From: an archaeon
GTDB lineage: Archaea; EX4484-52; B79-G9
Reading direction: 5' to 3'
Assembly (NCBI GenBank): GCA_043813875.1
Contig: JBDRKP010000061.1
Coordinates: 1-26,992 of the forward strand
Length of the DNA stretch: 26,992 bases
The notes beneath the pieces are model-generated. The model was not told the origin of the DNA and did no database searches. It saw only the letters and a list, made by a program, of their open reading frames with translations. This document shows, in pieces, positions 1,519 to 21,087 of the stretch; the stretch's first letter is position 1, and each line of letters begins with the position of its first letter. The position numbers were made by a program, and so were the translations under genes.

Positions 1519-2955
1519 TCAGCACCCCTTCTTATCCTTCTTCCTGATCTCCCCGATAGACTTCAGCGTATCATCCTTCATCGGGATAAGATACTCGCCG
1601 GTGATGCAGGCAGTACACAGGTGATCGATTCCGATCGCCTTCTTCAGGCCATCCACTGTCTGGTACGTAAGACTATCAGCCTTCAGGATCTCATCAATCT
1701 CCTCAATCGTATGATTATAAGCGATAAGCTCCTCGTAAGTCGGCATATCGATCCCGTAGATACACGGGTTGATAACCGGCGGACAGGATGAAAGGAGATG
1801 CACCTCAACCGCCCCGGCATTCCGAAGCAGCTCAACCAGCTTCCTTGAAGTCGTCCCGCGCACGATACTGTCATCTACAAGAGCGATCTTCTTGCCCTTG
1901 ATCTCAGAAGAGATCGGATTGATCTTAAGGCGCATGGCATTGACCCTCTCAGCCTGGGTAGACATGATAAACGTACGCCCTATATACCTGTTCTTGATAA
2001 GCCCCTCCCTATATTTCACACCAATATTGTTCGCAAAAGCAAGCGCCGCAGTCCGCGACGTATCAGGAGCCGCAATGACAGTATCAATATCCTTCTTCGA
2101 CCATTGTTCAGCAAGCTCGCGTCCGAGCGCAAGCCGTGCCTCATAGACACTCTCATGATCAAGGACAGAATCAGGCCTTGCAAAATACACATATTCAAAC
2201 ATGCAATGCCCCTTCTTCTTCACCTTCTGAAGGATGCGCCGCGTGACATTCATATCCATATCGACAAGAATAGCCTCACCGGAACTGACATCGCATATAA
2301 CCTTATGATTCAGGACATCAATCGCCACACTCTCCGAAGCGAAAATATAGCTATCAGGGGAGCCATCCATGCTCTTGCCGAACACAAGCGGCCTGATGCC
2401 ATAAGGATCGCGGATAGCAAGCAGCCCCACACCCTCGATCATGACGACAAGCGAATAGCTGCCAGAAACCCTTTTCATCATGCATTCAGTAGCCGTAAAT
2501 ACATGTTCTGCAGTAATTTTCCCGCGCCCTGAGACCTTCTTCAGCTCAAGCTTAAAGACACCAAGAATAGCCTCAAGATCAGAATTAGAATAGATACTGA
2601 TATTATTATCCCACAGGTAATCAACAAGCTCAGGCGTATTTATAGTATTCCCGTTGCTCGCCATAGCGATATTCACAGGAATCTTCACCTCAAACGGCTG
2701 GCAGTTCTTACCGGTATTCGTCCCGGCCGTCGTATACCTTACATGCCCTATGCCGATATTCCCCTTGAGCTCAGCAATATCCATCGCGCTAAAAACATCA
2801 CTGACAAGCCCGACATCCTTCTTGAGGCGCATCTTCTTGCCGTCATGCACGGTTATCCCGCACGCATCCTGCCCCCTGTGCTGAAGGGAAAGAAGGCCCG
2901 CATAAATATCAGGAGCAACATCCTTCGAACCGATAATACCTATAATCCCACACAT
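1519..2955 (-). CDS. purF: Amidophosphoribosyltransferase
   Basis: N-terminal MCGIIG (Ntn nucleophile Cys), LQHRGQD, GHVRYTT, CMFEYVYFARPDS, PRPP motif VDDSIVRGTT. Confidence 0.97.
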   Translation of the reverse strand: MCGIIGIIGSKDVAPDIYAGLLSLQHRGQDACGITVHDGKKMRLKKDVGLVSDVFSAMDIAELKGNIGIGHVRYTTAGTNTGKNCQPFEVKIPVNIAMASNGNTINTPELVDYLWDNNISIYSNSDLEAILGVFKLELKKVSGRGKITAEHVFTATECMMKRVSGSYSLVVMIEGVGLLAIRDPYGIRPLVFGKSMDGSPDSYIFASESVAIDVLNHKVICDVSSGEAILVDMDMNVTRRILQKVKKKGHCMFEYVYFARPDSVLDHESVYEARLALGRELAEQWSKKDIDTVIAAPDTSRTAALAFANNIGVKYREGLIKNRYIGRTFIMSTQAERVNAMRLKINPISSEIKGKKIALVDDSIVRGTTSRKLVELLRNAGAVEVHLLSSCPPVINPCIYGIDMPTYEELIAYNHTIEEIDEILKADSLTYQTVDGLKKAIGIDHLCTACITGEYLIPMKDDTLKSIGEIRKKDKKGC

Positions 2956-3794
2956 CAGAATCGCCTCTTTATATGATCAAGAACAGATGAAAATACAGCA
3001 ACCCCGGGCCCGTCTTCACTGCGTGTTTCCCCGCCATACCATCTCTGGAGCGTATACTTGCTAATAACTCTCTCAGGATGCGGCATCATGCCAAACACAT
3101 TGCCCTCCGGATTAGAGATACCTGCGATATTGAAGAGCGAGCCGTTCGGATTCCACGGATAATCCTCATTGAAATTGCCCTCATCATCAACATACCGGAA
3201 CACAATCTGGTCATTCGCCACAAGCTCGCGAAGTATCTCATCCTTCTGCTCAAGCGGCAGCGTGAAATTACCCTCGCCATGCGCAACAGGCATCTCAAGA
3301 ACCGCCCCTTTAGGTATATTTTTCGTCCATGCGCACTTGCCCTTTGAGACATGCTTCAAAAGAACATGCCTGCACTCGAAATGCGAAGACGCATTCTGCC
3401 GCAGCACCGCATCAGGATAATCAGGGACAATCTCCTTCCCTCCAGGCAGCAGCCCAAGCTCGACAATCACCTGGAACCCATTGCATATCCCGCCGACCGG
3501 ATAACCCTCCCTGACGAACCGGACAATATCATCCTTGAGTCCCGCCTTAAGCCTCGCCGCCCAGATAGCCCCTGCGCGCACATAATCCCCTGCAGAAAAC
3601 CCGCCAGGAAAGACGATGCACTGGTAATCATCAATCTTCCTCTTCATATCATGAGTTATATCCTTCTTCAGGAACTGGTTTATATGGACGATCTCAGGCC
3701 GGGCACCAAGCATTGAGAACGCATCAGAAGTAGCGGCTTCATTATTCGTGCCCTCCATCACCATCACAGCAACCTTGATATCGTTTACCTTCAT
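2955..3794 (-). CDS. purQ: Phosphoribosylformylglycinamidine synthase subunit PurQ (glutaminase)
   Basis: PGGFSAGD, GICNGFQ (catalytic Cys), AHGEG, NPNGS, GMMPHPER. Confidence 0.96.
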   Translation of the reverse strand: MKVNDIKVAVMVMEGTNNEAATSDAFSMLGARPEIVHINQFLKKDITHDMKRKIDDYQCIVFPGGFSAGDYVRAGAIWAARLKAGLKDDIVRFVREGYPVGGICNGFQVIVELGLLPGGKEIVPDYPDAVLRQNASSHFECRHVLLKHVSKGKCAWTKNIPKGAVLEMPVAHGEGNFTLPLEQKDEILRELVANDQIVFRYVDDEGNFNEDYPWNPNGSLFNIAGISNPEGNVFGMMPHPERVISKYTLQRWYGGETRSEDGPGVAVFSSVLDHIKRRF

Positions 3795-3805
3795 TCAAAA
3801 CACCA

Positions 3806-6142
3806 TTACCCGACAATCTTTCTTATGCCTTCATCCCACGCCCTGCACACGGCAACTGAATCAGCATCAATCAGCTTCTTTTTGCCATCAGACACGACAA
3901 GCTTCCCGTCACCCGTCACCTTCCCGATAAAGTAGAAAGGCACATCATTCTGTTTCATGGTCTTCAGAAAAGCATCTGCATCCGCTACCTCGGCAACGAA
4001 ACGCGTATTAGACTCTGAAAACAGCTTGAAATCGCTCCTCAACTTCCCCATAGCGGAAATATCAGCTGAAGCTCCAAGCCCGCCCGACCCGATAATCATC
4101 TCTGCAAGCGCCACCGCAATCCCCCCGTCAGAGACATCATGGCACGCGACAACCGCTCCCGACTCGATTGAAGAAACAACCGATTCGCACGACCTTTTCA
4201 GGAGATCAACATCAACGCGCGGCACGACCCCGCCGCTCACGCCGGAAAGCCGGCAATATTCAGACCCGCCAAGCTCTTTTTTCGTCTCGCCCACGACATA
4301 CAGCCGGTTGCCGTCCTTCTTGAGCTCCACAGTACATGTCTTACGTATATCATCAACCATCCCTATGCCAAAAATCGTAGGCGTCGGCAGGATCGACCCC
4401 TCGACACCCTCGTTATACAAAGAGACATTGCCTGACACAAAAGGAACACCAATACCCTTTGCCACAAAGCCGAGCCCCCGCACGCTTTCATGAAAGACCC
4501 CCATGCGGTCCGCCTTTTCCGGGTTCCCGAAATTCAGGTTGTCGGCAAACGAATGCGCCCTCGCCCCGACAGCCGCAAGATTCCTGCATGCCTCATCCAT
4601 GGCCGAAGCGCTCCCCCAGTAAGGATTCATCCCGACCATCCTCGGATTCACGTCACATGTCACCGCAAGCCCGCGATAAGAATTGCTAAGCGGCCTGAGC
4701 ACAGCAGCATCGCCATGCGTCGTCCTGTTGATCTTCCCGACAAGAGGCTTCACCACAGTGGACGCCATGATCTCATGGTCATAGACCCTGACAATATCCT
4801 CCCTGCTCGCTATATTAAGGCTCGAAAGAAGATCAAGAAGCATCTTATTATAATCCCTGGGCTCTGCCACATCCGGCTCGCTCTCATCGATCTTCGGGAG
4901 CTTCATAGGCCGGTCATAGAGCGGCGCCTCGACAAGGAAATCGATATCCATATCAAATATCTTCTCGCCATTGCAGTCAATGGCCAGATTCCTGCTCTTC
5001 GTGACCTCGCCGATCACGCTCGCCTCGACATCCCACACATTGCAAAGATCAAGCAATTTCTTTACGTCCTCACGCTTCACAGTAACCATCATGCGCTCCT
5101 GCGACTCAGATACCCATATCTCCCATGGCGCCATATTTTCTTCCTTTAGAGGAACCAACTCAAGATCAATACGGGCCCCAAGCCCGACAGGCTGCGCCAT
5201 CTCGCCGACCACGCACGAAAGCCCTCCTCCGCCAAGATCCTTCATCCCTGTAAGCAGCCCCTTCCTGTTCGCCTCAAGGCAGACGTGGATAAGGGGCTCC
5301 TTTATGATAGGCTGTCCCACCTGGACAGCGCTCCTGCCCGAAGTCTCGGAATCCTCGGAAAGTTCGACAGACGCGAAAGTCACCCCGTGGATTCCGTCGC
5401 GCCCGGTCCTGCCCCCGAGAATCACATAGACATCACCGGCACCTCCGGCATAGCTGTGTATCAACTCATCTTTCTTCATGAATCCAAGACACCCCACATT
5501 CACAAGGCAGTTGGTGAGATAAGAGTCATCAAAATAAACCATCCCCCCGACATTCGGGATGCCTACCTGGTTGCCGTAATCACGGATACCGGAAATGACT
5601 CCCGAATACAGGAACCTGGGATGCTTCGTCCCGCGGGGGATCTTTTTAGAATAATCAAGCGGCGCAAAAAACAGCGGATCAAGAACACATATAGGCTGCG
5701 CACCCATGCACACGATATCCCTTAATATTCCCCCGACACCGGTCGCTGCGCCTCCATGCGGCTCGACAGCAGACGGGTGGTTATGCGACTCGAAACCCAC
5801 GACATAAGCATGCTCCTCGTCAAACTCGACGACACCTGCATCCTCCTTGATCACAGAGATGTTCTGCGGCGCCTCTATCCCGAACACGAACTTCTTGAGA
5901 ATCTTTTTAGACGACTTATAAGAGCAGTGCTCGCTCCATGCCTGCCCGAGCGCCTGCAGCTCGATATCAGTCGGGTTTCGCCCTATTTTGGAAAAATAAT
6001 CGCGCACGCGCCTCATCTCATCAAGCGAAAGACCGACACCTGCCTCTCGGCTTATAGCCATAAGGTCATGATCAGTAGCCTTAAGCACATCGACCTCATA
6101 CAGCTCGCACTTCACATCTCTTCTGGTGAACAGCGCACTCAT
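3806..6142 (-). CDS. purL: Phosphoribosylformylglycinamidine synthase subunit PurL
   Basis: WSEHCSYKSS, ESHNHPSAVEP, GAATGVGG, DLGGGG, SESQERM, HDVSDGG. Confidence 0.97.
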   Translation of the reverse strand: MSALFTRRDVKCELYEVDVLKATDHDLMAISREAGVGLSLDEMRRVRDYFSKIGRNPTDIELQALGQAWSEHCSYKSSKKILKKFVFGIEAPQNISVIKEDAGVVEFDEEHAYVVGFESHNHPSAVEPHGGAATGVGGILRDIVCMGAQPICVLDPLFFAPLDYSKKIPRGTKHPRFLYSGVISGIRDYGNQVGIPNVGGMVYFDDSYLTNCLVNVGCLGFMKKDELIHSYAGGAGDVYVILGGRTGRDGIHGVTFASVELSEDSETSGRSAVQVGQPIIKEPLIHVCLEANRKGLLTGMKDLGGGGLSCVVGEMAQPVGLGARIDLELVPLKEENMAPWEIWVSESQERMMVTVKREDVKKLLDLCNVWDVEASVIGEVTKSRNLAIDCNGEKIFDMDIDFLVEAPLYDRPMKLPKIDESEPDVAEPRDYNKMLLDLLSSLNIASREDIVRVYDHEIMASTVVKPLVGKINRTTHGDAAVLRPLSNSYRGLAVTCDVNPRMVGMNPYWGSASAMDEACRNLAAVGARAHSFADNLNFGNPEKADRMGVFHESVRGLGFVAKGIGVPFVSGNVSLYNEGVEGSILPTPTIFGIGMVDDIRKTCTVELKKDGNRLYVVGETKKELGGSEYCRLSGVSGGVVPRVDVDLLKRSCESVVSSIESGAVVACHDVSDGGIAVALAEMIIGSGGLGASADISAMGKLRSDFKLFSESNTRFVAEVADADAFLKTMKQNDVPFYFIGKVTGDGKLVVSDGKKKLIDADSVAVCRAWDEGIRKIVG

Positions 6143-6384
6143 TCAAACCTCACCGTATAGTCATTTACCACCGGATTGATCAAAAGTCTCATGCACATGC
6201 TATCGATCTGGGCCTTTGCAGCATCCTTGCTTGGCGCATCAAGCGTAATCTCGAACACCTTTGATGTCCGGACATCAGAAACCGCAGAAAAACCGAGGAG
6301 CTCAAGCGCCTTTTTAGTATTCAGCCCTTCCGGATCAAGAATACCTTTTTTCAACCGGATAGTAACAAAAGCGTTATACTTCAT
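6139..6384 (-). CDS. purS: Phosphoribosylformylglycinamidine synthase subunit PurS (81 aa)
   Basis: LKKGILDPEG and LLINPVVNDY motifs. Start moved to ATG 6384, which has GGTGA 4 nt upstream. Overlaps the purL start. Confidence 0.93.
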   Translation of the reverse strand: MKYNAFVTIRLKKGILDPEGLNTKKALELLGFSAVSDVRTSKVFEITLDAPSKDAAKAQIDSMCMRLLINPVVNDYTVRFE

Positions 6385-6545
6385 ACAATCACCCACATAG
6401 TCCATATAAACAGAACAATGAAACTCCAACAAACAAGATAGATAAGATTATCTCGCCGATATTGAACTATTCTTCAATCAAATATTTAAATGCAACTCAG
6501 GAAAGGTTTAAAAATATTATAATTCCATTATATTAAGACGAATTT

Positions 6546-6899
6546 TCAAGTTCCGGTTTCTAGACAATTCGGACTATATGCATAAATAGTAGGTTCTTTT
6601 TCTTCTAGAGATACCCAACCCACAGATTCATTAGATCCTATAAGCTTAGAATCAACAAGCATTCTATGCACAGATCCCAATTCATCTGAAGTAAATGCAT
6701 TCACATCCAAACACTCACCCCTCATATGCTGTTTCATTGTATTTTTCACAGCATATCCGACTAAAAGCAACTTTTTTTCAGGCGCTCTGTAAGTCACGAT
6801 CTTATCTGAAATTCCATCACACTCATCAGACGCCACCATCACAACACTACCTGAGGACACTGGAATCAATTTATTTCCTTGATAATTAAAACAAGTCAT
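6546..6899 (-). CDS. Hypothetical protein (117 aa)
   Basis: AT-rich ORF with GGTGGTGA SD 4 nt before ATG. No recognisable motif. Confidence 0.6.
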   Translation of the reverse strand: MTCFNYQGNKLIPVSSGSVVMVASDECDGISDKIVTYRAPEKKLLLVGYAVKNTMKQHMRGECLDVNAFTSDELGSVHRMLVDSKLIGSNESVGWVSLEEKEPTIYAYSPNCLETGT

Positions 6900-7041
6900 C
6901 TAATCACCACCATAACTGATTTTAAACTCAATTGCAAGCCTTCTGTTTAATGCCATAAATTCTCAGATTAGCAAAATTATAGTTGATGTCGTTACTCGCT
7001 GGACAAATATAACCAATGAACCGATAGACATCAATCTATAT

Positions 7042-7077
7042 GTAAACGTCATTAGTCTAAAAAGTTATGACGTTTAC
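7042..7077. promoter_or_regulatory. Perfect 11-bp inverted repeat (terminator/processing hairpin or regulator site)
   Basis: GTAAACGTCAT (7042-7052) N14 ATGACGTTTAC (7067-7077), just downstream of the 7087 stop. Confidence 0.45.
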
Positions 7078-7086
7078 TATATTTAG

Positions 7087-7524
7087 TTAAAATTCATAAG
7101 TTTCATGAAATCCTCCGGGGCGAGACTTTACTGCAGGTCTGCTTTTTTCTGATTGATAATACTCCATTAAAGTTGAAACTGACTCAAGTAAAAGAAAAAA
7201 TGGTTTGCCGAAAGTACCGTTTTCTTTTACTTTTGTATTATTTTGTAACTCATCTAAATGACTGGTTACAGAGCTTCTGTATTCTTCAGGGATTGTATTT
7301 TCAGCACTATCCCTTGATAGACCCTTAAAATTTTTGAATACATCAAGTCTGCCTATTGCTTCGCTATTAAGATAGAAGAATGCCTCAACTTCACTAGACA
7401 TTGTGTGCCCATTATTCATAATTTTATTTCTACATAAATCAAGCGAAAACCCATCGTTATACACAATATTGGAATTATATGGACCCACTCCATTGTAATC
7501 AATTTTAATATTTTTGATTCCCAT
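7087..7524 (-). CDS. Hypothetical protein (145 aa)
   Basis: AT-rich ORF. Start moved to ATG 7524, with GAGGTGA 5 nt upstream. No recognisable motif. Confidence 0.65.
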   Translation of the reverse strand: MGIKNIKIDYNGVGPYNSNIVYNDGFSLDLCRNKIMNNGHTMSSEVEAFFYLNSEAIGRLDVFKNFKGLSRDSAENTIPEEYRSSVTSHLDELQNNTKVKENGTFGKPFFLLLESVSTLMEYYQSEKSRPAVKSRPGGFHETYEF

Positions 7525-7657
7525 TTTTATCACCTCATATTCAACCACGTTAGCGCAGTTGTTATCACACAGTAGTATTACCTACAATATATAATTAATC
7601 GAATTATTTTTTATCAAAAGGAAAGATTTATATAGAATAATAACCACATGATAAAAT

Positions 7658-8680
7658 ATGACTGAAAACAATCAAAATTATGACATTCCCTTAAAAGTCC
7701 TTACAATAAAAGACAGGAAAATCCTAAAAGAACTATTCGAGAATGGAAGAACCCCATTTTCAGTCATTGCAAAGCGGGTGGGCTTAAGCAAAGAAGTTGT
7801 GAATTACAGGGTAAAGAAACTAATAGATAATGGAATATTGTTAGGATTCAATACAGTTATCAATGTAAATAAACTTAGCTGGCAAATCTATTTCATCAAT
7901 ATCCGATTGAGAAATATAGATGATGCTGTTGAACAAGAGATTATCAAATTAATGACGAATCACCCAAACATTGCGCAAGTACTAAAATGCATGGGAAATT
8001 ACGACCTGATATTGAAAGTATTTGTTAAGGATTATATTGAAGTAAATAATCTGATGAAAAATATAGAAATAAGATTTAAGACACACATTGACGAATACGC
8101 AATTGATTTTGTTGAAAATGAACATCCAATACCCGTGCCATTTTTATATGAGCCGTTCAAGATCAACGAACACCAAAGCATACCTAAAAAAGACACAACA
8201 CCAGTCCCTGTTTTAAAAACAGACCTAGAGATATTAAAAGCACTGTCAAATGATGCAAGAATGCCGATTGCAGATATCGCAAAAAAAATAAACATGTCAG
8301 GAGAACTTACAAGATATCACTTAAAAAAACTTGAAAATAACAACCTGATAATAAAATACAGGCCAAGCGCATGGTCAGGAAGTAAATCCATAGGATATAG
8401 CTGGTATATAGTCATGCTAAAATTGAATGAAATAAACAGGATCGCACAAAAAAAATTACAATCATACATTATAAATAACCCCAATATGACCTATTACTAC
8501 AAATGCATAGGCCAGCACGACATTATGTTTGAAATCAGGCTAAAGACAAGTGATGAGCTTAACAAAGTACTGATGGACATAAGAAGCATATTAAAAAATG
8601 ATCTTAAATCGCATGAATTATCAATTATCTTAAAAGAATACAAATACACTTATTTTCCCGATTGCTTGCTCGAAAAATAA
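7658..8680 (+). CDS. Tandem (duplicated) Lrp/AsnC family transcriptional regulator
   Basis: Two wHTH-RAM modules: DRKILKELFENGRTPFSVIAKRVGLSKEVVNYRVKKL...GNYDL and DLEILKALSNDARMPIADIAKKINMSGELTRYHLKKL...GQHDI. Confidence 0.9.
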   Translation: MTENNQNYDIPLKVLTIKDRKILKELFENGRTPFSVIAKRVGLSKEVVNYRVKKLIDNGILLGFNTVINVNKLSWQIYFINIRLRNIDDAVEQEIIKLMTNHPNIAQVLKCMGNYDLILKVFVKDYIEVNNLMKNIEIRFKTHIDEYAIDFVENEHPIPVPFLYEPFKINEHQSIPKKDTTPVPVLKTDLEILKALSNDARMPIADIAKKINMSGELTRYHLKKLENNNLIIKYRPSAWSGSKSIGYSWYIVMLKLNEINRIAQKKLQSYIINNPNMTYYYKCIGQHDIMFEIRLKTSDELNKVLMDIRSILKNDLKSHELSIILKEYKYTYFPDCLLEK

Positions 8681-8782
8681 CAGGGGTCTTGGTTTTCATC
8701 CATAACTACCTGGAAATATTCCTTGCCATCGTCATGAAAATATGAGAGATCTGTAAAAGAGCCGCTACCTATCAAAAGAAGC

Positions 8783-9886
8783 TCATACAATTATTTCATC
8801 CAATTTGTTCTTCCTGACCGCATCCTTGACCTCAAGCGCGATCCTTCTCCCGCACGACATCGGCTTGCCATAAAAGAGGTGAGAATAGGGCGACTCCTTC
8901 GCATAGACATTAGTCCCGGCGACAATCCGTGCGCTTATCTCAAACACCTTCACTTCAAGATCCGGCGTGACGACAGTCTCAAGGCAGAAAGGCCCGTTCA
9001 TGCCAGGCGAAAAAAGCTCTGCTGAAGCATCGACAACTCTTTTTCCCATCTCAAGCACATGAGGCAGAAGCGATTCTCTCAGGACGCAGCCAGTATTGCC
9101 TGTCACAGTATAGCCGGGGACAACTCCTGCTTTCGCCATCTCTGCATTGGTCATGCCAAGCCGGTGCAACTCATCGATATTGCTCTCATCGCGCCTGTCG
9201 ACACCCGTAAGTTCGACTGCCCCAAGCCTACACTTATACCCGGAATCGCTGATAGGGCTATAGAAAAAATGCATATAATACCTGACACCGACAAGATACT
9301 CCTGTATCGTCGTGTTCTCAGTCACGAGGCCGCGCTTCTTGATCTGTTCATAATACTCCTTTGAACCTGACACCTTGAAATACCCAGCGCCGCCCTTCGC
9401 CCCGTCGAACTTGACAATCGAAAGGCAATCAATATCATCAGGGCTCAAAAACACCCGCGGCATCGAAAGCCCGGCAGTATCATAAAGCCAATGCCTCTCC
9501 TTCTTCCGGTCACCTTCCCAGTCAAGCACAGCCCTGTTGCCGATCATCGGCACATAAAGCTTGTCCTCTATATTCTTCGGCCCGAGATACTCGACAAACG
9601 ACCCGTGCGGCACAAGGATGACATTCATGGAAATAAGCTTATCCTGCATCTCTGGCTTAAGTATATCCTTGATGCTGTCGACAACAACAAACTCGTCCGG
9701 GCATGCGTGAGGAAACGCCTTATAAGTATCCACTCGGTCCTTTGTACAGATGCCGACAGTCTGAAATCCTTCATCGCGCGCCCCCGCAAATATCTGCAGC
9801 GCAGAATGCGAACACACAGTCCCGATCTTGATCTTCTTCTTATCATACTTCAAAAGATGCCCATGTATCACAGAAAGTGGAATCAT
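8783..9886 (-). CDS. purP: FAICAR synthetase, formate-dependent (archaeal PurP family, ATP-grasp)
   Basis: CSHSALQI, VPHGSFVEY, GAKGG, GPFCLET, FEISARIVAGTN, MSCGRRIA. Confidence 0.92.
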   Translation of the reverse strand: MIPLSVIHGHLLKYDKKKIKIGTVCSHSALQIFAGARDEGFQTVGICTKDRVDTYKAFPHACPDEFVVVDSIKDILKPEMQDKLISMNVILVPHGSFVEYLGPKNIEDKLYVPMIGNRAVLDWEGDRKKERHWLYDTAGLSMPRVFLSPDDIDCLSIVKFDGAKGGAGYFKVSGSKEYYEQIKKRGLVTENTTIQEYLVGVRYYMHFFYSPISDSGYKCRLGAVELTGVDRRDESNIDELHRLGMTNAEMAKAGVVPGYTVTGNTGCVLRESLLPHVLEMGKRVVDASAELFSPGMNGPFCLETVVTPDLEVKVFEISARIVAGTNVYAKESPYSHLFYGKPMSCGRRIALEVKDAVRKNKLDEIIV

Positions 9887-14048: not shown

Positions 14049-14050
14049 AT

Positions 14051-14080
14051 TATGAATAATAATTCATATACCTATTTAAA
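14051..14080 (-). promoter_or_regulatory. TATA box plus 18-bp palindromic operator of the DUF134 gene
   Basis: TATGAATAATAATTCATA (14051-14068) lies 4 nt from TTTAAATA (14073-14080, minus strand). Confidence 0.7.
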
Positions 14081-14111: not shown

Positions 14112-14342
14112 TTACTTGATTTCTTTAAGTCTGTTTTCTATTGCCTGCTTTTCTGTTTCAATCTCTTTGAGTTCTGCTTCAAGGATTTTCTTTTCCTCTG
14201 CTTCCGTCAGGGTAACAGGTCGATTATATCTTAGACCCAATCCCCTGCCAAACCCTCTTCGCATACCACCGCCACAAGGGCCTAACCCTCTTCCAGCCAG
14301 GGACCCTTGTCCAACGGGTCCTGTTCCGTCTCTATTTGGCAT
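14112..14342 (-). CDS. DUF5320 family Gly/Arg-rich small protein (76 aa)
   Basis: MPNRDGTGPVGQGSLAGRGLGPC...GRG followed by a coiled-coil tail. GGAGGT SD upstream of ATG 14342. Confidence 0.88.
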   Translation of the reverse strand: MPNRDGTGPVGQGSLAGRGLGPCGGGMRRGFGRGLGLRYNRPVTLTEAEEKKILEAELKEIETEKQAIENRLKEIK

Positions 14343-14366
14343 TTTTATCAACCTCCATAGTTTAGT

Positions 14367-14396
14367 TATGAATATATATTCATATAACTATTTAAA
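14367..14396 (-). promoter_or_regulatory. TATA box plus perfect 18-bp palindromic operator of the DUF5320 gene
   Basis: TATGAATATATATTCATA (14367-14384) lies 4 nt from TTTAAATA (14389-14396), the same geometry as the 14051 site. Confidence 0.72.
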
Positions 14397-14494
14397 TGTT
14401 CCGATGTTTTTTGGTGCGGTGGGACTTCTAAAATATAGTCTGCTACGCAGAAATTGAAAATACATTTAAAAACTTTCAGCACGATAGATAACGC

Positions 14495-14551
14495 ATGTTC
14501 GGCTATCAGACAAAAAAATCAATATTAACACCCATACTCCCCGCTTACTGA
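14495..14551 (+). CDS. Putative leader peptide of the pro operon (MFGYQTKKSILTPILPAY)
   Basis: ATG lies 22 nt after TTTAAAAA (14465-14472), the leaderless position. Two CCC Pro codons near the end. Followed by a pyrimidine tract and alternative helices. Confidence 0.45.
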   Translation: MFGYQTKKSILTPILPAY

Positions 14552-14636
14552 TAGTCATAGATCTTTCTTTCTTACATAAAAGCGGTTTATGGCGAAACCA
14601 TGATCACTCAGATATAAGACCAAGGAGGTAAGAAAC

Positions 14637-14696
14637 ATGGAAAAGATGACAAAAGGTGGATGTAATCCCATACAGGAACGAACTCAAAGAATGTAG
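14637..14696 (+). other. SD-led uORF (MEKMTKGGCNPIQERTQRM) overlapping the proB start out of frame
   Basis: AAGGAGGT (14622-14629) precedes ATG 14637. The proB frame is +1 relative to it and is closed by TGA at 14647-14649. Confidence 0.5.
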
Positions 14697-15459
14697 GAGG
14701 ATAGTGATAAAGATAGGGACAAACACGATAATAGACAGCGACGGCAGATTCAACCACAGCCTGATAAGAAGCATCGCAGAGGAAATCCGCGATCTCAAAA
14801 AAGAAGAAAGACAATTCGCGATCGTCACAAGCGGCGCAATCGGCCTCGGCAACCGCCACATGGGCTGGAAAAAGACAGAAAGCATAGTAGACAACCAATG
14901 CGCCGCATCCGTCGGCCAGGCGCTCCTCATGCACGCCTACCACGACTGCTTCAAAGAACACGGCCTGATCGTCTCCCAGATCCTCCTCACATACTCAGAC
15001 ATCTTCGATCCCCGCCGGGAAACCACAATCAGAAACCTCACAAAAAGACTCCTAGAGACAGGAATGATACCAATCATAAACGAGAACGACTCCGTCTCCA
15101 CAGAAGAGATAAGCTTCGGTGACAACGACATACTCTCGGCCCACGTCGCAAGGCTCACAGAAGCAGACCTACTGATACTCCTCACAAACACAGACGGCCT
15201 CTACAGGGACATAAAAAAAGAAGACACCATAAACGTAATAGAAAACATAGACCCTGAAATCAAAAAATACATAAGCGAAAAGAAATCACCAGACGGCAAA
15301 GGCGGCATGTCATCAAAACTCATCGCCGCAGAACTCGCAAAAGAATCAGGCATATTGACAGTGATAGCTAAAGGCACAGAAAAAGACATAATAAAAAGAA
15401 TACTGTCTGGAGAACACACAGGGACACTATTCAGCCTTAACGGAGGTAGAAAGAAATGA
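14656..15459 (+). CDS. proB: Glutamate 5-kinase (no PUA domain); true start uncertain
   Basis: RIVIKIGT, VTSGAIGLG, AASVGQ, QILLT, PIINENDSV, FGDNDILSA, GKGGMSSK. Confidence 0.93.
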   Translation: MDVIPYRNELKECRRIVIKIGTNTIIDSDGRFNHSLIRSIAEEIRDLKKEERQFAIVTSGAIGLGNRHMGWKKTESIVDNQCAASVGQALLMHAYHDCFKEHGLIVSQILLTYSDIFDPRRETTIRNLTKRLLETGMIPIINENDSVSTEEISFGDNDILSAHVARLTEADLLILLTNTDGLYRDIKKEDTINVIENIDPEIKKYISEKKSPDGKGGMSSKLIAAELAKESGILTVIAKGTEKDIIKRILSGEHTGTLFSLNGGRKK

Positions 15460-16229
15460 AGCTCGGGATCATAGGAACCGGAAACCTTGGAAAACCAATA
15501 ATAGACCGCATGATAGAAAACAACATCCACATAATGGCAAGCAGCAGGACACCTGCAACATACAGGGGACTGGAAATAACAAGCGACAACAGTCGCCTAG
15601 CAAAGGAATCAGAAATAATCATTCTCGCAGTAAAGCCCCAGTCCATGGATGAGGTCCTGGAAGAGATAAAAGACAACGTAAAAGACAAGCTCATCATAAC
15701 CTTCGCAGCAGGCCTGAAAATCAGCTACTACGAAAAAAGGACCGGCGCAAGAATAGCAAGAGTGATGACAAACATAGCGGTAAGATACGGCAAAGGCATA
15801 AGCGCATACACTCTCTCAAAAACCTGCACAGGGCAAGACAACAAAGAAGTTGAAAAAATCCTTAGATGCCTCGGAAAATCCATCAGGACAGAAGACGAAA
15901 ACGCACTTGATGTGATTACAGGCGTCTCTGGCAGCGGAATCGCATACTTCATAAAAATTATGGACATATTCCAGAAATCAGCCATACAACACGGCATAGA
16001 AGCGAAACAGGCAAAAACAGTAATAACACAGACCGTAAAAGGCGCTCTCGCCATGATGGAAAACACAGGACAGACAAACGATAAACTGATAAGAGAAGTA
16101 GCATCAAAGGGCGGGACAACCGAACAGGGCTTAAAGGAACTGGAAGAAAAAGAAATCGAAAAGATACTGGACGGCACCATAAAAAGAACCATAGAAAAAT
16201 GCAGATCAATAGGTGATGCATACGACTGA
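15456..16229 (+). CDS. proC: Pyrroline-5-carboxylate reductase
   Basis: IGTGNLG Rossmann motif, LAVKPQ, RVMTN, TGVSGSG, VASKGGTT. Confidence 0.93.
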   Translation: MKLGIIGTGNLGKPIIDRMIENNIHIMASSRTPATYRGLEITSDNSRLAKESEIIILAVKPQSMDEVLEEIKDNVKDKLIITFAAGLKISYYEKRTGARIARVMTNIAVRYGKGISAYTLSKTCTGQDNKEVEKILRCLGKSIRTEDENALDVITGVSGSGIAYFIKIMDIFQKSAIQHGIEAKQAKTVITQTVKGALAMMENTGQTNDKLIREVASKGGTTEQGLKELEEKEIEKILDGTIKRTIEKCRSIGDAYD

Positions 16230-17454
16230 CATAAAAGATATCGCAGAAAAAGCAAAAAAAGCATCAATCAAAATATGTAGATTAGATACAGACGAAAAGA
16301 ACGAGATACTGAAAAACATGGCAAAAAGTCTCGACATGAACAGGGCAGAAATCCTCAAGGCAAACGAAATAGACGTAAAAGCCGCAAGAGAAAAGAACAC
16401 AAAAGAATCACTCATAGATAGGCTCGCACTCAGTGACGGGCGCATCAGCCAGATGATAGGATCCATTGAAGAGGTGATCAGGCTAAAAGACCACGTAGGT
16501 GAGATAATCACACAAAAAACCTTAAAAAACGGCCTGGAATTAAAAGAGATCAGAACAGCATTCGGCGTGATCGGCGTCATATACGAATCCAGGCCGAACG
16601 TGACAGTAGACGTTTCCACACTATGCCTGAAAAGCTCATCCGCAGTCATACTCAAAGGCGGCTCTGAGGCGCAGAACACCAACAAAGCAATAGTAAGCGC
16701 ACTAAACACTGCCTGCCCAATAAAAGACGCCATCCAGCTGATAGAATCAACAGACCGGACAGCTACAAAAGATCTCATCCAGCTTGACCGCTACATAGAC
16801 CTCATAATCCCAAGAGGCGGAAAGTCGCTGATACACTTCGTGCGCGAGAACTCAAAGATCCCGGTCATAGAGACAGGCACAGGAAACTGCCACATATATG
16901 TAGACGAAAGCGCCGACATAGACGAGGCAATAAAGATAATAATAAACGCAAAAACCCAAAGGCCGGGCGTATGCAACGCAGCAGAAAAAGTCCTCGTACA
17001 CGAAAATATAGCAGAAGCGATACTGCCGAAACTGAGAGAAGAACTGATTAAAAAAAACGTAGAGATAAGAGGCGACAAAAAGACACAAGAGATAATCAAC
17101 TGTAAGCCTGCTACAGACGAAGACTGGCCAACCGAATACCTGGACCTCATAATAGCCATAAAGATAGTAAAAGACACACAAGAAGCGATAGACCACATCA
17201 ACATTTACGGCACAAGACACTCAGAAGCGATCCTGAGCAAAAACAAAAAGAACATAGACACATTCTTCAAAGAGATAGACGCAGCCGCAGTCTACTCGAA
17301 CGCCTCCACAAGATTCACAGACGGCGGTGAGTTCGGCCTTGGCGCAGAGATAGGCATAAGCACACAGAAGATGCACGCAAGAGGCCCGATGGGACTGATT
17401 GCGCTCACCACGACCAAGTACCTCATAACCGGCAACGGTCAGATCCGGACATGA
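16216..17454 (+). CDS. proA: Gamma-glutamyl phosphate reductase
   Basis: GVIGVIYESRPNVT, LKGGSEA, IPRGG, GVCNAAE (catalytic Cys), NASTRFTDGGEFGLGAEIGISTQKMHARGPMG. Confidence 0.96.
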   Translation: MHTTDIKDIAEKAKKASIKICRLDTDEKNEILKNMAKSLDMNRAEILKANEIDVKAAREKNTKESLIDRLALSDGRISQMIGSIEEVIRLKDHVGEIITQKTLKNGLELKEIRTAFGVIGVIYESRPNVTVDVSTLCLKSSSAVILKGGSEAQNTNKAIVSALNTACPIKDAIQLIESTDRTATKDLIQLDRYIDLIIPRGGKSLIHFVRENSKIPVIETGTGNCHIYVDESADIDEAIKIIINAKTQRPGVCNAAEKVLVHENIAEAILPKLREELIKKNVEIRGDKKTQEIINCKPATDEDWPTEYLDLIIAIKIVKDTQEAIDHINIYGTRHSEAILSKNKKNIDTFFKEIDAAAVYSNASTRFTDGGEFGLGAEIGISTQKMHARGPMGLIALTTTKYLITGNGQIRT

Positions 17455-17546: not shown

Positions 17547-20090
17547 TCACAAAAGGATTGTATTTTCTTTACCAATTTTATCAATCACTTTTCTCAATAA
17601 ATAACCACGATATAACGTCTTATAATCGCCAACTAAAATGAGTTTATTTCTGGCTCGCGTTATGGCAACATTTACCAAACATTCATTTTCGATAAACTTC
17701 AATTTGTATTCTGGAAATGAATATCTCTTACTCCTTGCAAAACTCAGAATAATTATATCTTTTTCTCTACCCTGATATTTATGAACTGTATCAACTTCGA
17801 CATTATTTATTTTAATATCATTGAGATATTTTTTTATCAATAATTTTTGTTTAACATAAGGTGTAATGACACCAATATCTTCGGCATTAACTTCATTAAT
17901 AAATAATGAAACAATATCTGCAACATACATTGCTTCTTTTGAATTTGAACATCCAGAGCCAATCTCATCTTCATAATAGCCTCTTTTTGATGTATCTATA
18001 AATAAAACAGGCATCATTGGGCTCAAAAATTGATTACTACAGACATTTAAACGAAGAATTCTTTCATTAACACTTTCTGATGTCCTTAATTTTCCTTCAT
18101 AAAAGATTTCACTTGCAATCTGGGCAATAATTTCATGCATCCTATACTGAATCGTAAGCAAAGTTGCCGCATAAGGATATAGTTCAAAAAACCGATTGAA
18201 TATCGATAAATTCATCTCCTTGGATATATCTTCTTCTTCTATTGGCTGCAATTGACGATTATCACCAACTAAAATAATTTTTTTGCATTTTAAAATAGGT
18301 AAAAGAGACATAAAACTAGCCACTTGACTAGCTTCGTCCATTATCATCACATCAAAATCAATATCATCTAAAAAATAATGACATGACGAAATTGCAGTAG
18401 CTGCAATTATATCTGCATCATTTATTATTTCAGAGATTATGGCTTTTTTCAATTTTTCAACAGTTCTCTTGTGATAATCTAGAGAAGAGGATAGATTTTG
18501 ATACTCACCGGATAAATCGTTTTTATGATTAATCTGGATGAAAAGTTCGGTATTTATAGACTTTATTTTTGAATCATATAAATCAATTTTTGTCTCTAGA
18601 AATCCTTCATAAATAATATAAACCTCATTAGTTAGTTCAAAATCTTTCATTTTTATTTTTGAAGCTTCTTGTTCTTTCAAAGTTGGTAGATAATGCTCTT
18701 TTAAAACGTTATAAATCCTAAACTCAAAATTTAATGCATCTCTATCAGGAAATCCATTACCATCAGGATACATTTTATAGAACTCTCCGATACATATCTT
18801 TCTTAATTGCTTAGATCTTTTTTGAAGTACCGATATTTCGTCTAAATAATCTCTATTTTTCTTATATTTTATTTTTAATTTTTCGATCTCGACATTATCG
18901 AATTTATAGAAAAAAGATTTAATTTTTATACCTAAAATAGATATTTTCATATCTCTTGTCTGGATTTTCAGTTTTTGTATCTCTTTTTTGTCCGGTATCT
19001 TTGTTTCTAACTCATTCATTTGGAGAATATTCTTACTTAAAGTTGAACAGAATTCCGACTTCTTTGTGAGTTCAGTTATCGCATTAAATGTGGAAGATAT
19101 GTCTTGCGAATCAGTAGTAATGGTAGATTTCGAAATCAAATCGAGATATTTTTGCTTTTCGCTTAGAAGACCAATACGTTTTTTATCAAGAGTCTTTTTT
19201 TTCTCATTAAGTTTGTTTATCTCTTCTTGTGCTGAATCAATTTCATCTCTCTTTTTCGGCAGATTACAGAATATTGAATTTATTATATCCTGAAGTCGCT
19301 CTACTTCTTTCCAATCTTTATGTTTTTTCATTTTTTCAAATATTGAATATTCTTTGACTTCTGCATCAATTTCTTCAATCGGACCAATCCTTACAATCTT
19401 TTCTAATTCTCTATTCATTAATCTTTTGATAATATTATCGACTGCAAGATTTGTCCATGCCGTTATCAAAATTTTTTGATTTCTTTTTGAAAATTGCCTG
19501 ATTAATTCTTCAATAACATACGTCTTTCCTGTTCCAGGAGGACCTATTATCAAGTGAAAATCATCAGCCTCGATAGACTTTCTTACTGCATCTTTCTGAT
19601 TTTCATTAAGTCTCTTTGAAATGAAAGATACACTTTTTTTACAATATTGTGGTCTGTTCTCCCCAAGCATAAAGTCTAGTATTTTTACATTATCGGAACT
19701 AACGTTACCCTTCCTTAGGTTTTCAATAATAGGTTTTAGTCTATCTAAAATAACCGTTGTCTTGTTAATATCTATAATAACTTTCTTCTTTTCAAATTGT
19801 GAAGGATTTCTTTTAATTTCAATTTTAAGAATCAGATTATAATATTCTCTCACTATGCCTCTTATTTCAGTTCCTAATACACTATCTTCTCTAATCAAGA
19901 TTTGCGAACCAATCGATAAATCTATTTGTTTAGTAGGTCTTAATTTAACTATTAAAAGTCCTTCATTCAAATCTATTTTTTCTACAGTCCCATCTATTGT
20001 AATCTGTTTTTTCTTTTTTGCTTCAACGAATCCTTCTATTTCTGAAGCAATCTGGAAATATTTCGCACTATTTATGGAAACATCTTCCAT
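17547..20090 (-). CDS. Upf1/DNA2/NAM7-like superfamily 1 helicase with a long coiled-coil insertion
   Basis: LNENQ Q-motif, GPPGTGKT, TAWTNLAVDN, DEASQ, GDNRQLQP, QYRM, TVHKYQGRE, NVAITRAR. Long K/E/L-rich insert between motifs Ia and II. AT-rich. Confidence 0.92.
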   Translation of the reverse strand: MEDVSINSAKYFQIASEIEGFVEAKKKKQITIDGTVEKIDLNEGLLIVKLRPTKQIDLSIGSQILIREDSVLGTEIRGIVREYYNLILKIEIKRNPSQFEKKKVIIDINKTTVILDRLKPIIENLRKGNVSSDNVKILDFMLGENRPQYCKKSVSFISKRLNENQKDAVRKSIEADDFHLIIGPPGTGKTYVIEELIRQFSKRNQKILITAWTNLAVDNIIKRLMNRELEKIVRIGPIEEIDAEVKEYSIFEKMKKHKDWKEVERLQDIINSIFCNLPKKRDEIDSAQEEINKLNEKKKTLDKKRIGLLSEKQKYLDLISKSTITTDSQDISSTFNAITELTKKSEFCSTLSKNILQMNELETKIPDKKEIQKLKIQTRDMKISILGIKIKSFFYKFDNVEIEKLKIKYKKNRDYLDEISVLQKRSKQLRKICIGEFYKMYPDGNGFPDRDALNFEFRIYNVLKEHYLPTLKEQEASKIKMKDFELTNEVYIIYEGFLETKIDLYDSKIKSINTELFIQINHKNDLSGEYQNLSSSLDYHKRTVEKLKKAIISEIINDADIIAATAISSCHYFLDDIDFDVMIMDEASQVASFMSLLPILKCKKIILVGDNRQLQPIEEEDISKEMNLSIFNRFFELYPYAATLLTIQYRMHEIIAQIASEIFYEGKLRTSESVNERILRLNVCSNQFLSPMMPVLFIDTSKRGYYEDEIGSGCSNSKEAMYVADIVSLFINEVNAEDIGVITPYVKQKLLIKKYLNDIKINNVEVDTVHKYQGREKDIIILSFARSKRYSFPEYKLKFIENECLVNVAITRARNKLILVGDYKTLYRGYLLRKVIDKIGKENTILL

Positions 20091-20094
20091 GTTA

Positions 20095-20841
20095 TTACCA
20101 TTTATTTGATAAGACAGCTTCTATCGCTTGCTGAGTTAATGGTTTACTATCATTCCAAACAGCATTAAAGAACTGACGAACCTTATTTAGCATATTTTCG
20201 TCTCTTAAACATATCCCTGCCTCATAATTGACAGATAAACCCTTTTTAGTTAAATTGGCAGAGGAAATTATAGCCACCCTATTATCTATTATAAGCATTT
20301 TTGCATGCAGATCATTATTATATCGTATATCTGCACCATAGTTATCTTTCAAAACCCTAAACTTGTCTAAATCAGTTATCCCCCGATCAATATCTTCTTT
20401 TATGAGGCGAGTAATAATTTTGATTTCGATCTTATTCTTACCATTTGTTTTCTGAAAATATGAAAGTTCGTTGAGAATATGTGTTATCCATGGGGAAGAA
20501 ATCAGTATTTCTTTTTTCGCATTAGATAATTCCCTGCTAATTTCACCATAAACGGTGTTCTGCGCTTCATTAGGTGTTGTTACTATAAAAGTATACGCTC
20601 CCTTTGACCGTTCCAAATCTAATTTTAATTTTTTCTTTTCTTCCTCTAAATCTTTATTTTGCTCCATTATTTCTTTTTGTTCTATCGTAGCCAATTTCAA
20701 TATTTTGACGCTTTCTTCCAATGATTCTATTTGCTTCTCTTGTACGTCTTTTTTAATTTTAAGTTCTTCTATCAATCTTGTATCTTTTCTATATTCCTTT
20801 ATTTTTTCAGCCAATTCAATGATTTCTTTTGATACTTTCAT
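20095..20841 (-). CDS. Phospholipase D-family (single HKD, Nuc-like) nuclease with N-terminal coiled coil
   Basis: ISSPWI and LHAKMLIID...SSANLT...NYEAG. Heptad-like K/E-rich N-terminus. Ends 4 nt before the helicase start. Confidence 0.88.
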   Translation of the reverse strand: MKVSKEIIELAEKIKEYRKDTRLIEELKIKKDVQEKQIESLEESVKILKLATIEQKEIMEQNKDLEEEKKKLKLDLERSKGAYTFIVTTPNEAQNTVYGEISRELSNAKKEILISSPWITHILNELSYFQKTNGKNKIEIKIITRLIKEDIDRGITDLDKFRVLKDNYGADIRYNNDLHAKMLIIDNRVAIISSANLTKKGLSVNYEAGICLRDENMLNKVRQFFNAVWNDSKPLTQQAIEAVLSNKW

Positions 20842-21087
20842 TACTACCACAAGAGATTTAGTTTTTATTTAGTTTTTTAACCTTAAGAAATAATCGATAC
20901 CATTATATTATATCAATTGACAAAAGAACCATATCCGCATAAAATTTATTTATTTTGTGTTTATTTCCTTAAGCGACGCATTTTTAATCTCCTCCGCTAC
21001 ACTCAATCGCATTTAAATGATATTGGTTAATGTTACTTAAGAAAGAATTTTATCATTCCACCTGCGGACCAGTCCAAATCGCTTTTA

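Follow-up and report, generated by a model that had tools for sequence, protein, structure and literature searches.

How is the proB-proC-proA operon on contig JBDRKP010000061.1, part of an archaeal metagenome-assembled genome (MAG), translated, and can its leader sense proline? The window studied here is this whole contig (C61 of the genome G000; 26,992 nucleotides), and the region in question is the stretch of about 300 nt between proB and a divergent gene for a DUF5320 protein. A sequence-only reading of this region had proposed a proline-sensing leader-peptide attenuator. We found that the Shine-Dalgarno (SD) sequence in front of proB opens a short open reading frame (ORF), designated ORF2, and that proB lies in the +1 frame of this ORF. 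We propose that the leader, about 200 nt long, acts as a two-stage, translation-level proline sensor, whose output would be a +1 frameshift at a hungry Pro codon, resembling that of prfB, the Escherichia coli gene for release factor 2 (RF2). We give this explanation a probability of about 0.6. The whole analysis is computational.

The MAG comprises 1.64 Mb in 90 contigs and is 91.5% complete; archaeal markers include a uS2 protein of the eukaryal/archaeal type and PurP. The coding region of proB, proC and proA spans 14656-17454 on the plus strand, counted from GTG 14656. The phylum is represented by 42 species genomes, and the searches at the levels of order, class and phylum all gave the identical 42. 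ProB (E <= 1e-30) was found in five of these genomes, G000 counted. Only two orthologous leaders were found, one in G005 (same genus, 69% ProB identity) and the other in G040 (another family, 48%). Both genomes have the pro gene layout of G000 and keep the entire leader. The proB gene of G025 (L006, G025:C11, 1492-2115, minus strand) matches residues 99-262 only; its N-terminal part is absent, and a degenerate T-rich 5' part lies behind a CBS-domain gene. This gene is probably a remnant. Further proB leaders were sought at 10 loci on genome contigs and 80 loci on metagenome contigs, where ProB was at most 45% identical in all cases, and no comparable leader was found. The Pro-rich short ORFs seen upstream of those proB genes were noise only, and the matches at L072 and L120 were the C-terminus of the upstream gene, which we take to resemble Obg. 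No contig from four public sequencing runs (shares at most 0.11) spans 14406-14813.

The SD and ATG 14637 had, by implication, been taken for the start of proB in the sequence-only reading. This assignment has to be withdrawn, as the ATG opens the out-of-frame ORF2 instead. The SD and the AUG of ORF2 are kept in G005 and G040, and the orthologues of ORF2 (MYKKTKGGRDPKQDRAKKI in G005 and MYDEIKNGECLPFERKTEGC in G040; 19-20 codons) overlap the proB start in the -1 frame, so that the proB frame is +1 relative to ORF2 in all three genomes. In the window, TGA 14647-49 closes the proB frame, which is open from 14650 on. Ahead of the conserved RIVIKIGT, this frame contains a single start codon, GTG 14656, at a distance of 26 nt from the SD; a GTG in the proB frame is conserved in 3/3. 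Within ORF2, a Pro codon occurs at the identical offset from an internal SD-like element in all three leaders: GGU GGA UGU AAU CCC in G000, GGU GGA CGC GAU CCU in G005, and GGU GAA UGU CUU CCU in G040. The 3' end of the 16S rRNA of the genome is GGAUCACCUCCU, and GGUGA or GGUGG can form five pairs with this tail.

The same layout was found in front of other biosynthetic genes in G000. This layout, hereafter the cassette, consists of an SD, an AUG, a short ORF, GGUGRN, 3 nt, one codon and then a pathway-cognate codon, the enzyme being encoded in the +1 frame. In the his leader, the SD and AUG are followed by MKNEMSKKMGGCIHIC, the core is GGU GGA UGU AUU CAC with His at the place of the Pro codon of proB, and a long ORF lies in +1. 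The trpE cassette reads AUG GGU GGA UAC CUU UGG (MGGYLWRGKY). A SerK-like gene located after cysK/M has GGU GAA UAC CGG UGC (METIMGEYRC...), and a CimA-like gene has GGU GGC UGC UUU AUU. In this way the codon two after GGUGRN is Pro, His, Trp, Cys and Ile before the pro, his, trp, cys-related and ile-related genes, respectively. The offset rule was set on pro and his only, and the trp, cys and ile cases were found afterwards; at the amino-acid frequencies of the genome, the chance that these three also fit is about 1e-5.

In total, 25 loci from G000 and its relatives were tabulated, and all of them have a short AUG ORF with the enzyme in its +1 frame. The cognate codon lies in the overlap at 24 of the 25. 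GGUGRN stands at the fixed offset at 20 loci and is absent from five that still look frameshift-dependent. At 5/25 loci (G031 trpE; G020 and G031 hisG; G022 and G027 SerK-like), the enzyme frame has no ATG, GTG or TTG in the overlap. The P-site codon is CUU, CUC, UUU or CCC, the classical +1-prone codons, at 15 of 24 loci.

TrpE was found in 11 of the 42 genomes, and at each of the nine trpE loci with the 5' end, an SD precedes a short ORF that starts with AUG, lies in the -1 frame and encodes Y/C-L-W. Upstream of UGG, codons vary synonymously when read in the short-ORF frame (UAC/UAU, CUU/CUC), and the same changes replace residues non-conservatively in that of TrpE (T/I/V, F/S); after UGG, conservation shifts to the TrpE frame. 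The start-less trpE of G031 has no GGUGRN and keeps the short ORF, MITNYLW. In the case of hisG, five loci were found in four genomes. Both copies in G005 keep the arrangement of G000. In G020 and G031 (family f6), a 32-33 codon ORF with the end ...CPHS(H/Y)F has hisG itself in its +1 frame; the junction is CCC CAU, with no canonical start before the conserved KLKLAIPKG. For the SerK-like gene, five loci have ...R-C (CGG UGC), including G022 of family f8 (no in-frame start), and two further loci were not assessable. In the CimA-like survey, which leaves out the G001 locus, GGU GGA CAU CUU AUU is kept in G007 and G006. The fixed cognate codon and the +1 enzyme at the his, trp, cys and ile loci make ORF2 the more telling part of the proB leader, compared with the upstream short ORF described below.

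Two other ways to find such leaders were tried and rejected. The 9-mer GGTGGATGT occurs 12 times in the genome, about the number expected by chance, and only the pro and his copies are in a leader context. A genome-wide scan for leader ORFs rich in a single amino acid gave mostly low-complexity noise; among its His- and Trp-rich matches, those that were checked were spurious.

The his leader (G000:C65:200-410, L126/L144; in G005, L145 and L148) contains three His cassettes. Two of them overlap in tandem right after the promoter, with GGU GRA UGU/UAU CUU CAU followed in +1 by GGU GAA UGU UUU CAU. A connecting ORF of 44-59 codons in the next +1 frame is open at 3/3 loci and ends at, or overlaps, the AUG of the third cassette. 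Such an arrangement resembles a cascade of frameshifts. Behind the his cassette, the first long ORF (G000:C65:382-708) encodes 108 amino acids and has no Pfam or NCBIfam match. Its orthologues in G005 contain the motif GRLVVPAYVRRKLGI, which presumably resembles DNA-binding domains of the AbrB/SpoVT type, and the protein may be a his regulator encoded ahead of hisG.

We scanned 401 archaeal genomes for the trp-cassette pattern, with the reversed pattern as a control. Within the phylum, the pattern was found in 9 of 42 genomes (reversed control, 0), eight times at trpE. The other 359 genomes gave 23 matches against 10 for the reversed control. Among the outside matches that were given a locus, only that in G158 is in a trp context (L198, G158:C2, 1440-1540): an SD is followed by MKGGCLWGSEACS, with TrpB2 in +1, beside a regulator of the TrpY family. 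In the archaeal order of G158, a short ORF with M..C-L-W was found at 3 of the 13 TrpB2 loci examined (G158, G407 and G412), and in G407 and G412 (L202 and L204 among the entries for these loci) the TrpB2 frame has no ATG, GTG or TTG.

We propose the following course of events at ORF2, which we term stage 2 and consider the better supported stage from the comparison of loci. Ribosomes would load at the strong SD and start at AUG 14637. The eleventh codon is the Pro codon CCC 14667-69, placed one codon plus 3 nt after GGUGGA, and cognate codons at this place are presumably decoded slowly when their tRNA is short. With ample Pro-tRNA, CCC would be decoded, the ribosome would stop at UAG 14694, and no ProB would be made. 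With scarce Pro-tRNA, the A site would stay empty and the ribosome would slip +1 into the proB frame. ProB would thereby carry ten extra residues at its N-terminus (MEKMTKGGCN-PYRNELK...), and coupling would allow ProC and ProA to be made next. Other frameshift routes, namely a +1 slip at the ORF2 stop, -1 slippery heptamers and transcriptional slippage, were rejected, as no site for any of them is conserved in the three pro leaders.

Several observations weigh against this proposal. The pro-leader comparison consists of three sequences (G000, G005 and G040) that are kin and not independent, and in G020 the gene order is proC-proA-proB, with a leaderless proC and no leader ORF. Re-pairing of the P-site tRNA after the slip would be poor, with two of three pairs in the window (AAU to AUC) and one of three in G005 (GAU to AUC). 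In the window, the slip would bring CCA, again a Pro codon, into the A site; at the his, trp, cys and ile cassettes, and at pro in G005 and G040, the codon brought in would be non-cognate. GGUGRA pairs with another stretch of the 16S tail than the SD of prfB, and its 3-nt spacer is perhaps not mechanically equivalent. A GTG is present in the enzyme frame at 20 of the 25 loci, so that ordinary GUG initiation may serve proB. The SerK-like gene of G000 encodes a ParB_N protein that matches the family of the archaeal serine kinase SerK best (E 2.8e-16), and the CimA-like gene encodes a LeuA/CimA-family synthase with its best match to citramalate synthase; both assignments, made on matches below the curated cut-offs, are putative. 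The SerK-like gene of G002 has no cassette, and that of G027 has a short ORF without Cys and no in-frame start. All seven CimA/LeuA loci of family f4 have plain starts. In G005, the CimA-like gene (L153, G005:C118, about 1400-1500) keeps GGU GGA CAU CUU AUU and has no AUG in the short-ORF frame, and the upstream gene ends 20 nt before the motif; this cassette either has decayed or is fed by the ribosomes of the upstream gene. In the order of G158, TrpB2 of G408 is in frame with an ATG, and the other nine TrpB2 loci start ordinarily.

A rival reading has a frameshift that is real and constitutive, or enzymes that start at near-cognate codons; the short ORF would then supply the start, and the cognate codon would sense nothing. 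AUC, AUA and AUU are present in the start-less enzyme frames, the junction at the G027 SerK-like gene, where the Cys codon is missing, could be at the UGA stop, and frameshifting at a set ratio is common according to excerpts of a review of recoding (PMC5009743). We consider this explanation quite improbable. The fixed-offset codon matches the pathway in five pathways, three of which were found after the rule had been set, and the cognate codon is kept across families while the neighbouring codons vary.

Upstream of ORF2 lies a first short leader ORF, ORF1. The features that the sequence-only reading had listed here (the TATA-like box, ATG 14495 with 18 codons, the CCC codons, three complementary pairs and the pyrimidine tract) are all present where it had placed them. 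From the spacing to the TATA-like box, transcription would start at ATG 14495 and the mRNA of ORF1 would be leaderless. The 30-nt spacing is identical in G005 (TTTAAAAAA at L004:1318, ATG at 1348); in G040, ORF1 has its own SD in place of this spacing. The orthologues of ORF1 are MQDYQLDPSPVPPHY in G005 and MVNYKMSNDMEQFPNPPRFF in G040, and the three sequences were anchored on the in-frame UAG of UAGUCAU, which follows ORF1 in all three leaders. The Pro codons at -7 and -4 from this UAG are invariant (3/3) despite synonymous changes, and codon -2 is Tyr or Phe. The expectation that a short ORF with Pro codons would be conserved upstream of proB in relatives was thus borne out at the three orthologous loci.

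CCC is the rarest Pro codon in the genes of the window (26/224). Two Pro codons among 17 codons in ORF1 of G000 alone have a probability of 0.13 at the 3.7% Pro of the genome; for the nine Pro among 50 codons in the three leaders, P = 8e-5, a figure overstated by kinship. It is the conservation of ORF1, its Pro codons, the UAGUCAU, the pyrimidine tract and ORF2 in the two orthologous leaders, rather than the features in a single sequence, that raises the observation above chance. Recoding of the UGA in ORF1 was ruled out, as TGA terminates 15 of the 23 genes in the window.

In and downstream of ORF1, the RNA could form helix A, hairpin D and helix C; 14568-75 is complementary to 14628-35, and 14541-46 to 14580-85. 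In G005, helix A is formed by GACUAUCAG and CUGAUAGUC, with a G.U pair changed to A-U; in G040, 8 of 10 pairs are kept, with one double change from C-G to A-U (read by eye). Pairing between the pyrimidine tract, as an anti-SD, and the SD of ORF2 is predicted in 3/3, at -11.4 (G000), -7.6 (G005) and -7.6 (G040) kcal/mol. The best fold of the free leader is helix A plus the anti-SD:SD pairing, and on paper each of the helices A, D and C would exclude the others, in three sequences only. The complementary stretches of the competing helices proposed earlier are present; in the single sequence of the window the helices are at chance level. A contiguous helix of at least 9 bp (GU allowed) occurred in 133 of 500 dinucleotide shuffles, and the fold of the 146-nt leader has a z of -0.92, with 37 of 200 shuffles at least as stable.

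When the RNA 3' of the ribosome was folded alone, hairpin D was predicted while the A site was at or before the last Pro codon of ORF1. One codon past this Pro, hairpin D was replaced by the anti-SD:SD pairing in G000 and G005, and not in G040. The probability that the SD is unpaired shows a clear switch in G005, from 0.40 before to 0.09-0.03 after. The change is slight in G000 (0.44 before, 0.37-0.40 after), and G040 has no switch (0.13 to 0.21 throughout). The whole-leader thermodynamics was given up as a test of the switch, as the minimum free energy folds differ among the three species and constrained folds with a masked ribosome had no consistent SD switch. Stage 1, the part played by ORF1, is weak: its helices are at chance level in one sequence, and the predicted opening of the SD on stalling is small in G000 and absent in G040.

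The last Pro codon of ORF1 is exactly 13 nt before AGUCAU in 3/3, so that a ribosome stalled at this codon would sit flush against the next helix. We suggest that in stage 1 a leaderless ORF1 with two invariant Pro codons controls access to ORF2, the anti-SD normally pairing with the stage-2 SD. A ribosome stalled at the last Pro would end 1 nt short of AGUCAU, and hairpin D would free the SD from the anti-SD. Alternatively, the ORF1 ribosome might shift +1 and translate across the anti-SD. The +1 frame of ORF1 crosses the anti-SD in 3/3, which is not significant, and unmasking of the SD by such a frameshifted ribosome is offered as an idea only. A parallel is seen in the his leader of this genus, where the connecting ORF leads from the two upstream His cassettes to the AUG of the third. 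By either route, the stage-2 SD would be opened only under proline shortage; between stalling and shifting, the odds are about even.

The sequence-only reading had also allowed for transcription termination at the pyrimidine tract. A terminator there was rejected, as no U run of five or more is present between the ORF1 stop and ORF2 in G000 and G005; G040 has U7 and U5 runs in this interval. A search of Rfam gave no match at the gathering threshold in the window, and at E up to 10 on 14400-14760 gave two chance-level matches. No curated structured-RNA family, T-box or riboswitch, was matched in the window. The earlier observation is thus real and incomplete. The idea of a proline-sensing leader survives in spirit, with its Pro codons conserved; the parts on termination and on the proB start do not, and the second short ORF had been missed.

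Could the leader work as a classical translational attenuator without any frameshift, in effect the sequence-only proposal shifted to the level of translation? Stalling on ORF1 and alternative helices would then gate the next SD, ProB would be made from GTG 14656, and ORF2 would be a coupling or helper ORF. The conservation of ORF1 with its two Pro codons, the predicted anti-SD:SD pairing and the proB-frame GTG, each in 3/3, agree with this, as does the 1:2 / 2:3 / 3:4 topology of helices A, D and C, which suits attenuator logic. In phage MS2, ribosomes that have terminated are known to reinitiate at a start located shortly upstream. However, 26 nt separate the GUG from the SD, and the ORF2 stop follows 38 nt after the GUG. 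The GUG (in trp also the SD) would be hidden under a ribosome that stalls at the cognate codon; thus, with a GUG start and an inhibitory short ORF, starvation would lower the enzyme, the opposite of the required sign. A +1 slip at the hungry codon would have the required sign, and it explains the frame-specific substitution pattern and the start-less loci. Attenuation at proB also leaves unexplained why the his, trp, cys and ile loci have their own cognate codon at an equal offset, and how five start-less loci in the phylum and two start-less TrpB2 loci are translated. No leader resembling ORF1 precedes the trp, cys and ile cassettes. We regard a classical attenuator as unlikely.

A last alternative is that the region holds no regulatory element and that its short ORFs and helices are products of chance in an AT-rich divergent promoter region. 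The chance-level fold energy and helices in the window alone, the P of 0.13 for the two ORF1 Pro codons alone and the lack of an Rfam match are in keeping with this. However, the leader blocks, both ORFs, their frames, their stops and the Pro codons persist between genomes whose ProB is 48-69% identical, by which point neutral intergenic DNA would be scrambled, and the cassette recurs at other operons. Chance is therefore very improbable, and a two-stage sensor with a frameshift output is the explanation we retain. The features are listed in Table 1.

Table 1. Features of the proB leader and its neighbouring genes in the window
Feature	Coordinates	Strand	Remarks
DUF5320 gene	14112-14351	-	divergent from proB
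TATA-like box TTTAAAAA	14465..14472	+	30 nt before ATG 14495
ORF1, 18 sense codons (MFGYQTKKSILTPILPAY)	14495..14554	+	UGA 14549-51, then in-frame UAG 14552-54
Helix A 5' arm GGCUAUCAG	14501..14509	+	pairs with 14548-56
Pro codon CCC	14531..14533	+	codon -7 from common UAG; Pro 3/3 (CCC, CCC, CCU)
Pro codon CCC	14540..14542	+	codon -4 from common UAG; Pro 3/3 (CCC, CCG, CCG)
Helix A 3' arm CUGAUAGUC	14548..14556	+	covers ORF1 stop codons
Hairpin D, AGUCAUAGAUC with GGUUUAUGGC (14584-93)	14553..14593	+	RNAalifold consensus of three leaders; encloses pyrimidine tract
Pyrimidine tract UCUUUCUUUCUUAC, anti-SD	14562..14575	+	can pair with 14622-35; duplex -11.4 kcal/mol
UAA ending ORF1 +1 frame	14577..14579	+	just beyond anti-SD
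SD AAGGAGGT	14622..14629	+	serves ATG 14637, 7 nt away
ORF2, 19 codons (MEKMTKGGCNPIQERTQRM)	14637..14696	+	stop TAG 14694-96; supplies the 0 frame at the proposed shift site
proB (glutamate 5-kinase) reading frame	14650..15459	+	TIGR01027, 243 bits (cut-off 186), E 3.9e-72
Internal SD-like GGUGGA	14655..14660	+	3 nt before proposed P-site codon; contains GTG 14656
Proposed shift site AAU CCC	14664..14669	+	P-site Asn codon; A-site Pro codon CCC 14667-69
proC (pyrroline-5-carboxylate reductase)	15456..16229	+	TIGR00112, 205 bits (cut-off 197)
proA (glutamate-5-semialdehyde dehydrogenase)	16213..17454	+	NF001221, 584 bits

The closest known relative of the proposed stage 2 is the +1 frameshift of prfB, whose site is SD-UAU-CUU-UGA. 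As in prfB, the cassette has a short AUG ORF in the 0 frame that ends soon after the shift site, with the product in +1; a putative internal SD-like element 3 nt before the proposed P-site codon, which is often CUU; and an A-site codon, presumably slow, whose decoding depends on what the gene supplies. The trp cassette, GGUGGA-UAC-CUU-UGG, nearly copies the prfB site. Unlike prfB, where a stop codon is read by RF2, the slow codon of the cassette is a sense codon read by aminoacyl-tRNA, the output is a biosynthetic operon, and the host is archaeal. In addition, GGUGRA is in another register on the 16S tail, and the P-site codons at proB, AAU and GAU, re-pair poorly.

With the trpL, hisL and pheL attenuators, the proB leader shares an ORF1 with cognate codons and would share the selection of RNA pairings by ribosome position, with the predicted topology of helices A, D and C. 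It differs from them in having no hairpin-plus-U-run terminator, with the SD as the presumed target of regulation rather than transcription, in having only 2 to 4 regulatory codons in ORF1, and in being followed by a proposed second stage of the frameshift type. As suggested for the proB leader, the translational attenuation of erm and cat has a leader ORF and a masked downstream SD that a stalled ribosome unmasks. There, the stall is due to a drug and the nascent peptide, whereas in the proB leader it would be due to an empty A site at Pro codons. Salmonella mgtL/mgtP and the T-box of Bacillus proBA read proline or the charging of tRNA-Pro through an mRNA leader, which is the point they would share with the proB leader. 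The mgtL/mgtP leaders control Mg2+ transport and virulence genes via Rho-dependent or intrinsic termination, and the T-box binds uncharged tRNA directly; the proB leader matches no T-box or other Rfam family.

To our knowledge, next to nothing has been established on how archaea monitor single amino acids through their mRNAs, and leader-peptide attenuation has been a bacterial textbook story. Our search of the literature (full text, with subscription-only papers outside it) found no amino-acid-specific frameshift control of biosynthetic genes and no archaeal leader-peptide attenuation. Excerpts of the 2016 recoding review state of hungry-codon frameshifting that gives a functional trans-frame product that "no examples are known" in nature (PMC5009743), and excerpts of a 2021 review mention only one reported case of frameshifting in Archaea, a -1 event (PMC8211752). 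The nearest published analogue is zip-2 of Caenorhabditis elegans, a +1 sensor with an upstream overlapping ORF in the -1 frame of the main ORF, in which ribosomes that elongate slowly move +1 into the main frame and make a fusion protein (PMC11831180). In contrast to the cassette, zip-2 is eukaryotic and senses a general inhibition of elongation, whereas the junction codon of the cassette is amino-acid-specific and differs from operon to operon.

Other features of the window were also noted. A perfect 16-nt palindrome, ATGAATATATATTCAT, lies at 14368-14383 in the promoter of the DUF5320 gene, and a similar ATGAAT..ATTCAT is found near 14050-14075, upstream of a DUF134 (helix-turn-helix, HTH) gene. 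A copy of the first 49 nt with 88% identity is present at G000:C54:28815-28864, and many metagenome contigs match only this stretch. The palindrome is probably an operator for the DUF134 regulator. Directly downstream of proA, and convergent with it, 17547-20850 (minus strand) encodes an 847-aa SF1 helicase (AAA_11/AAA_12) and then a 251-aa nuclease of the PLD family, a pair reminiscent of defence or repair modules. At 7658-8680 (plus strand), a 340-aa protein with two tandem modules of the Lrp/AsnC type is encoded among purF, purQ, purL and purP (1519-9886).

Taken beyond proB, the comparison of loci suggests that some archaea, in at least two orders, control amino-acid biosynthesis by a modular, reprogrammable +1 frameshift cassette. 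One cognate sense codon (Pro, His, Trp, Cys or Ile) would read tRNA charging and gate the first enzyme, and cassettes could be chained into multi-stage, ultrasensitive leaders, as in ORF1 plus ORF2 of proB and the three his cassettes. We hold this general proposal, which would make the cassette the first natural case of hungry-codon frameshifting and, in Archaea, the first leader control specific to an amino acid, to be evenly balanced between true and false. If it is true, a single cognate codon at a frameshift site would give a direct read-out of tRNA charging with no protein regulator, in a sensor that works on leaderless and SD-led mRNAs alike and whose specificity is changed by a one-codon swap. 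Hungry-codon frameshifting would then have a natural regulatory use, in a previously undescribed type of amino-acid sensor, and the cassette could serve as a compact part for synthetic amino-acid sensors. Gene callers would mis-start or miss such genes, some of which have no in-frame start, and this would affect the reconstruction of pathways in small-genome archaea.

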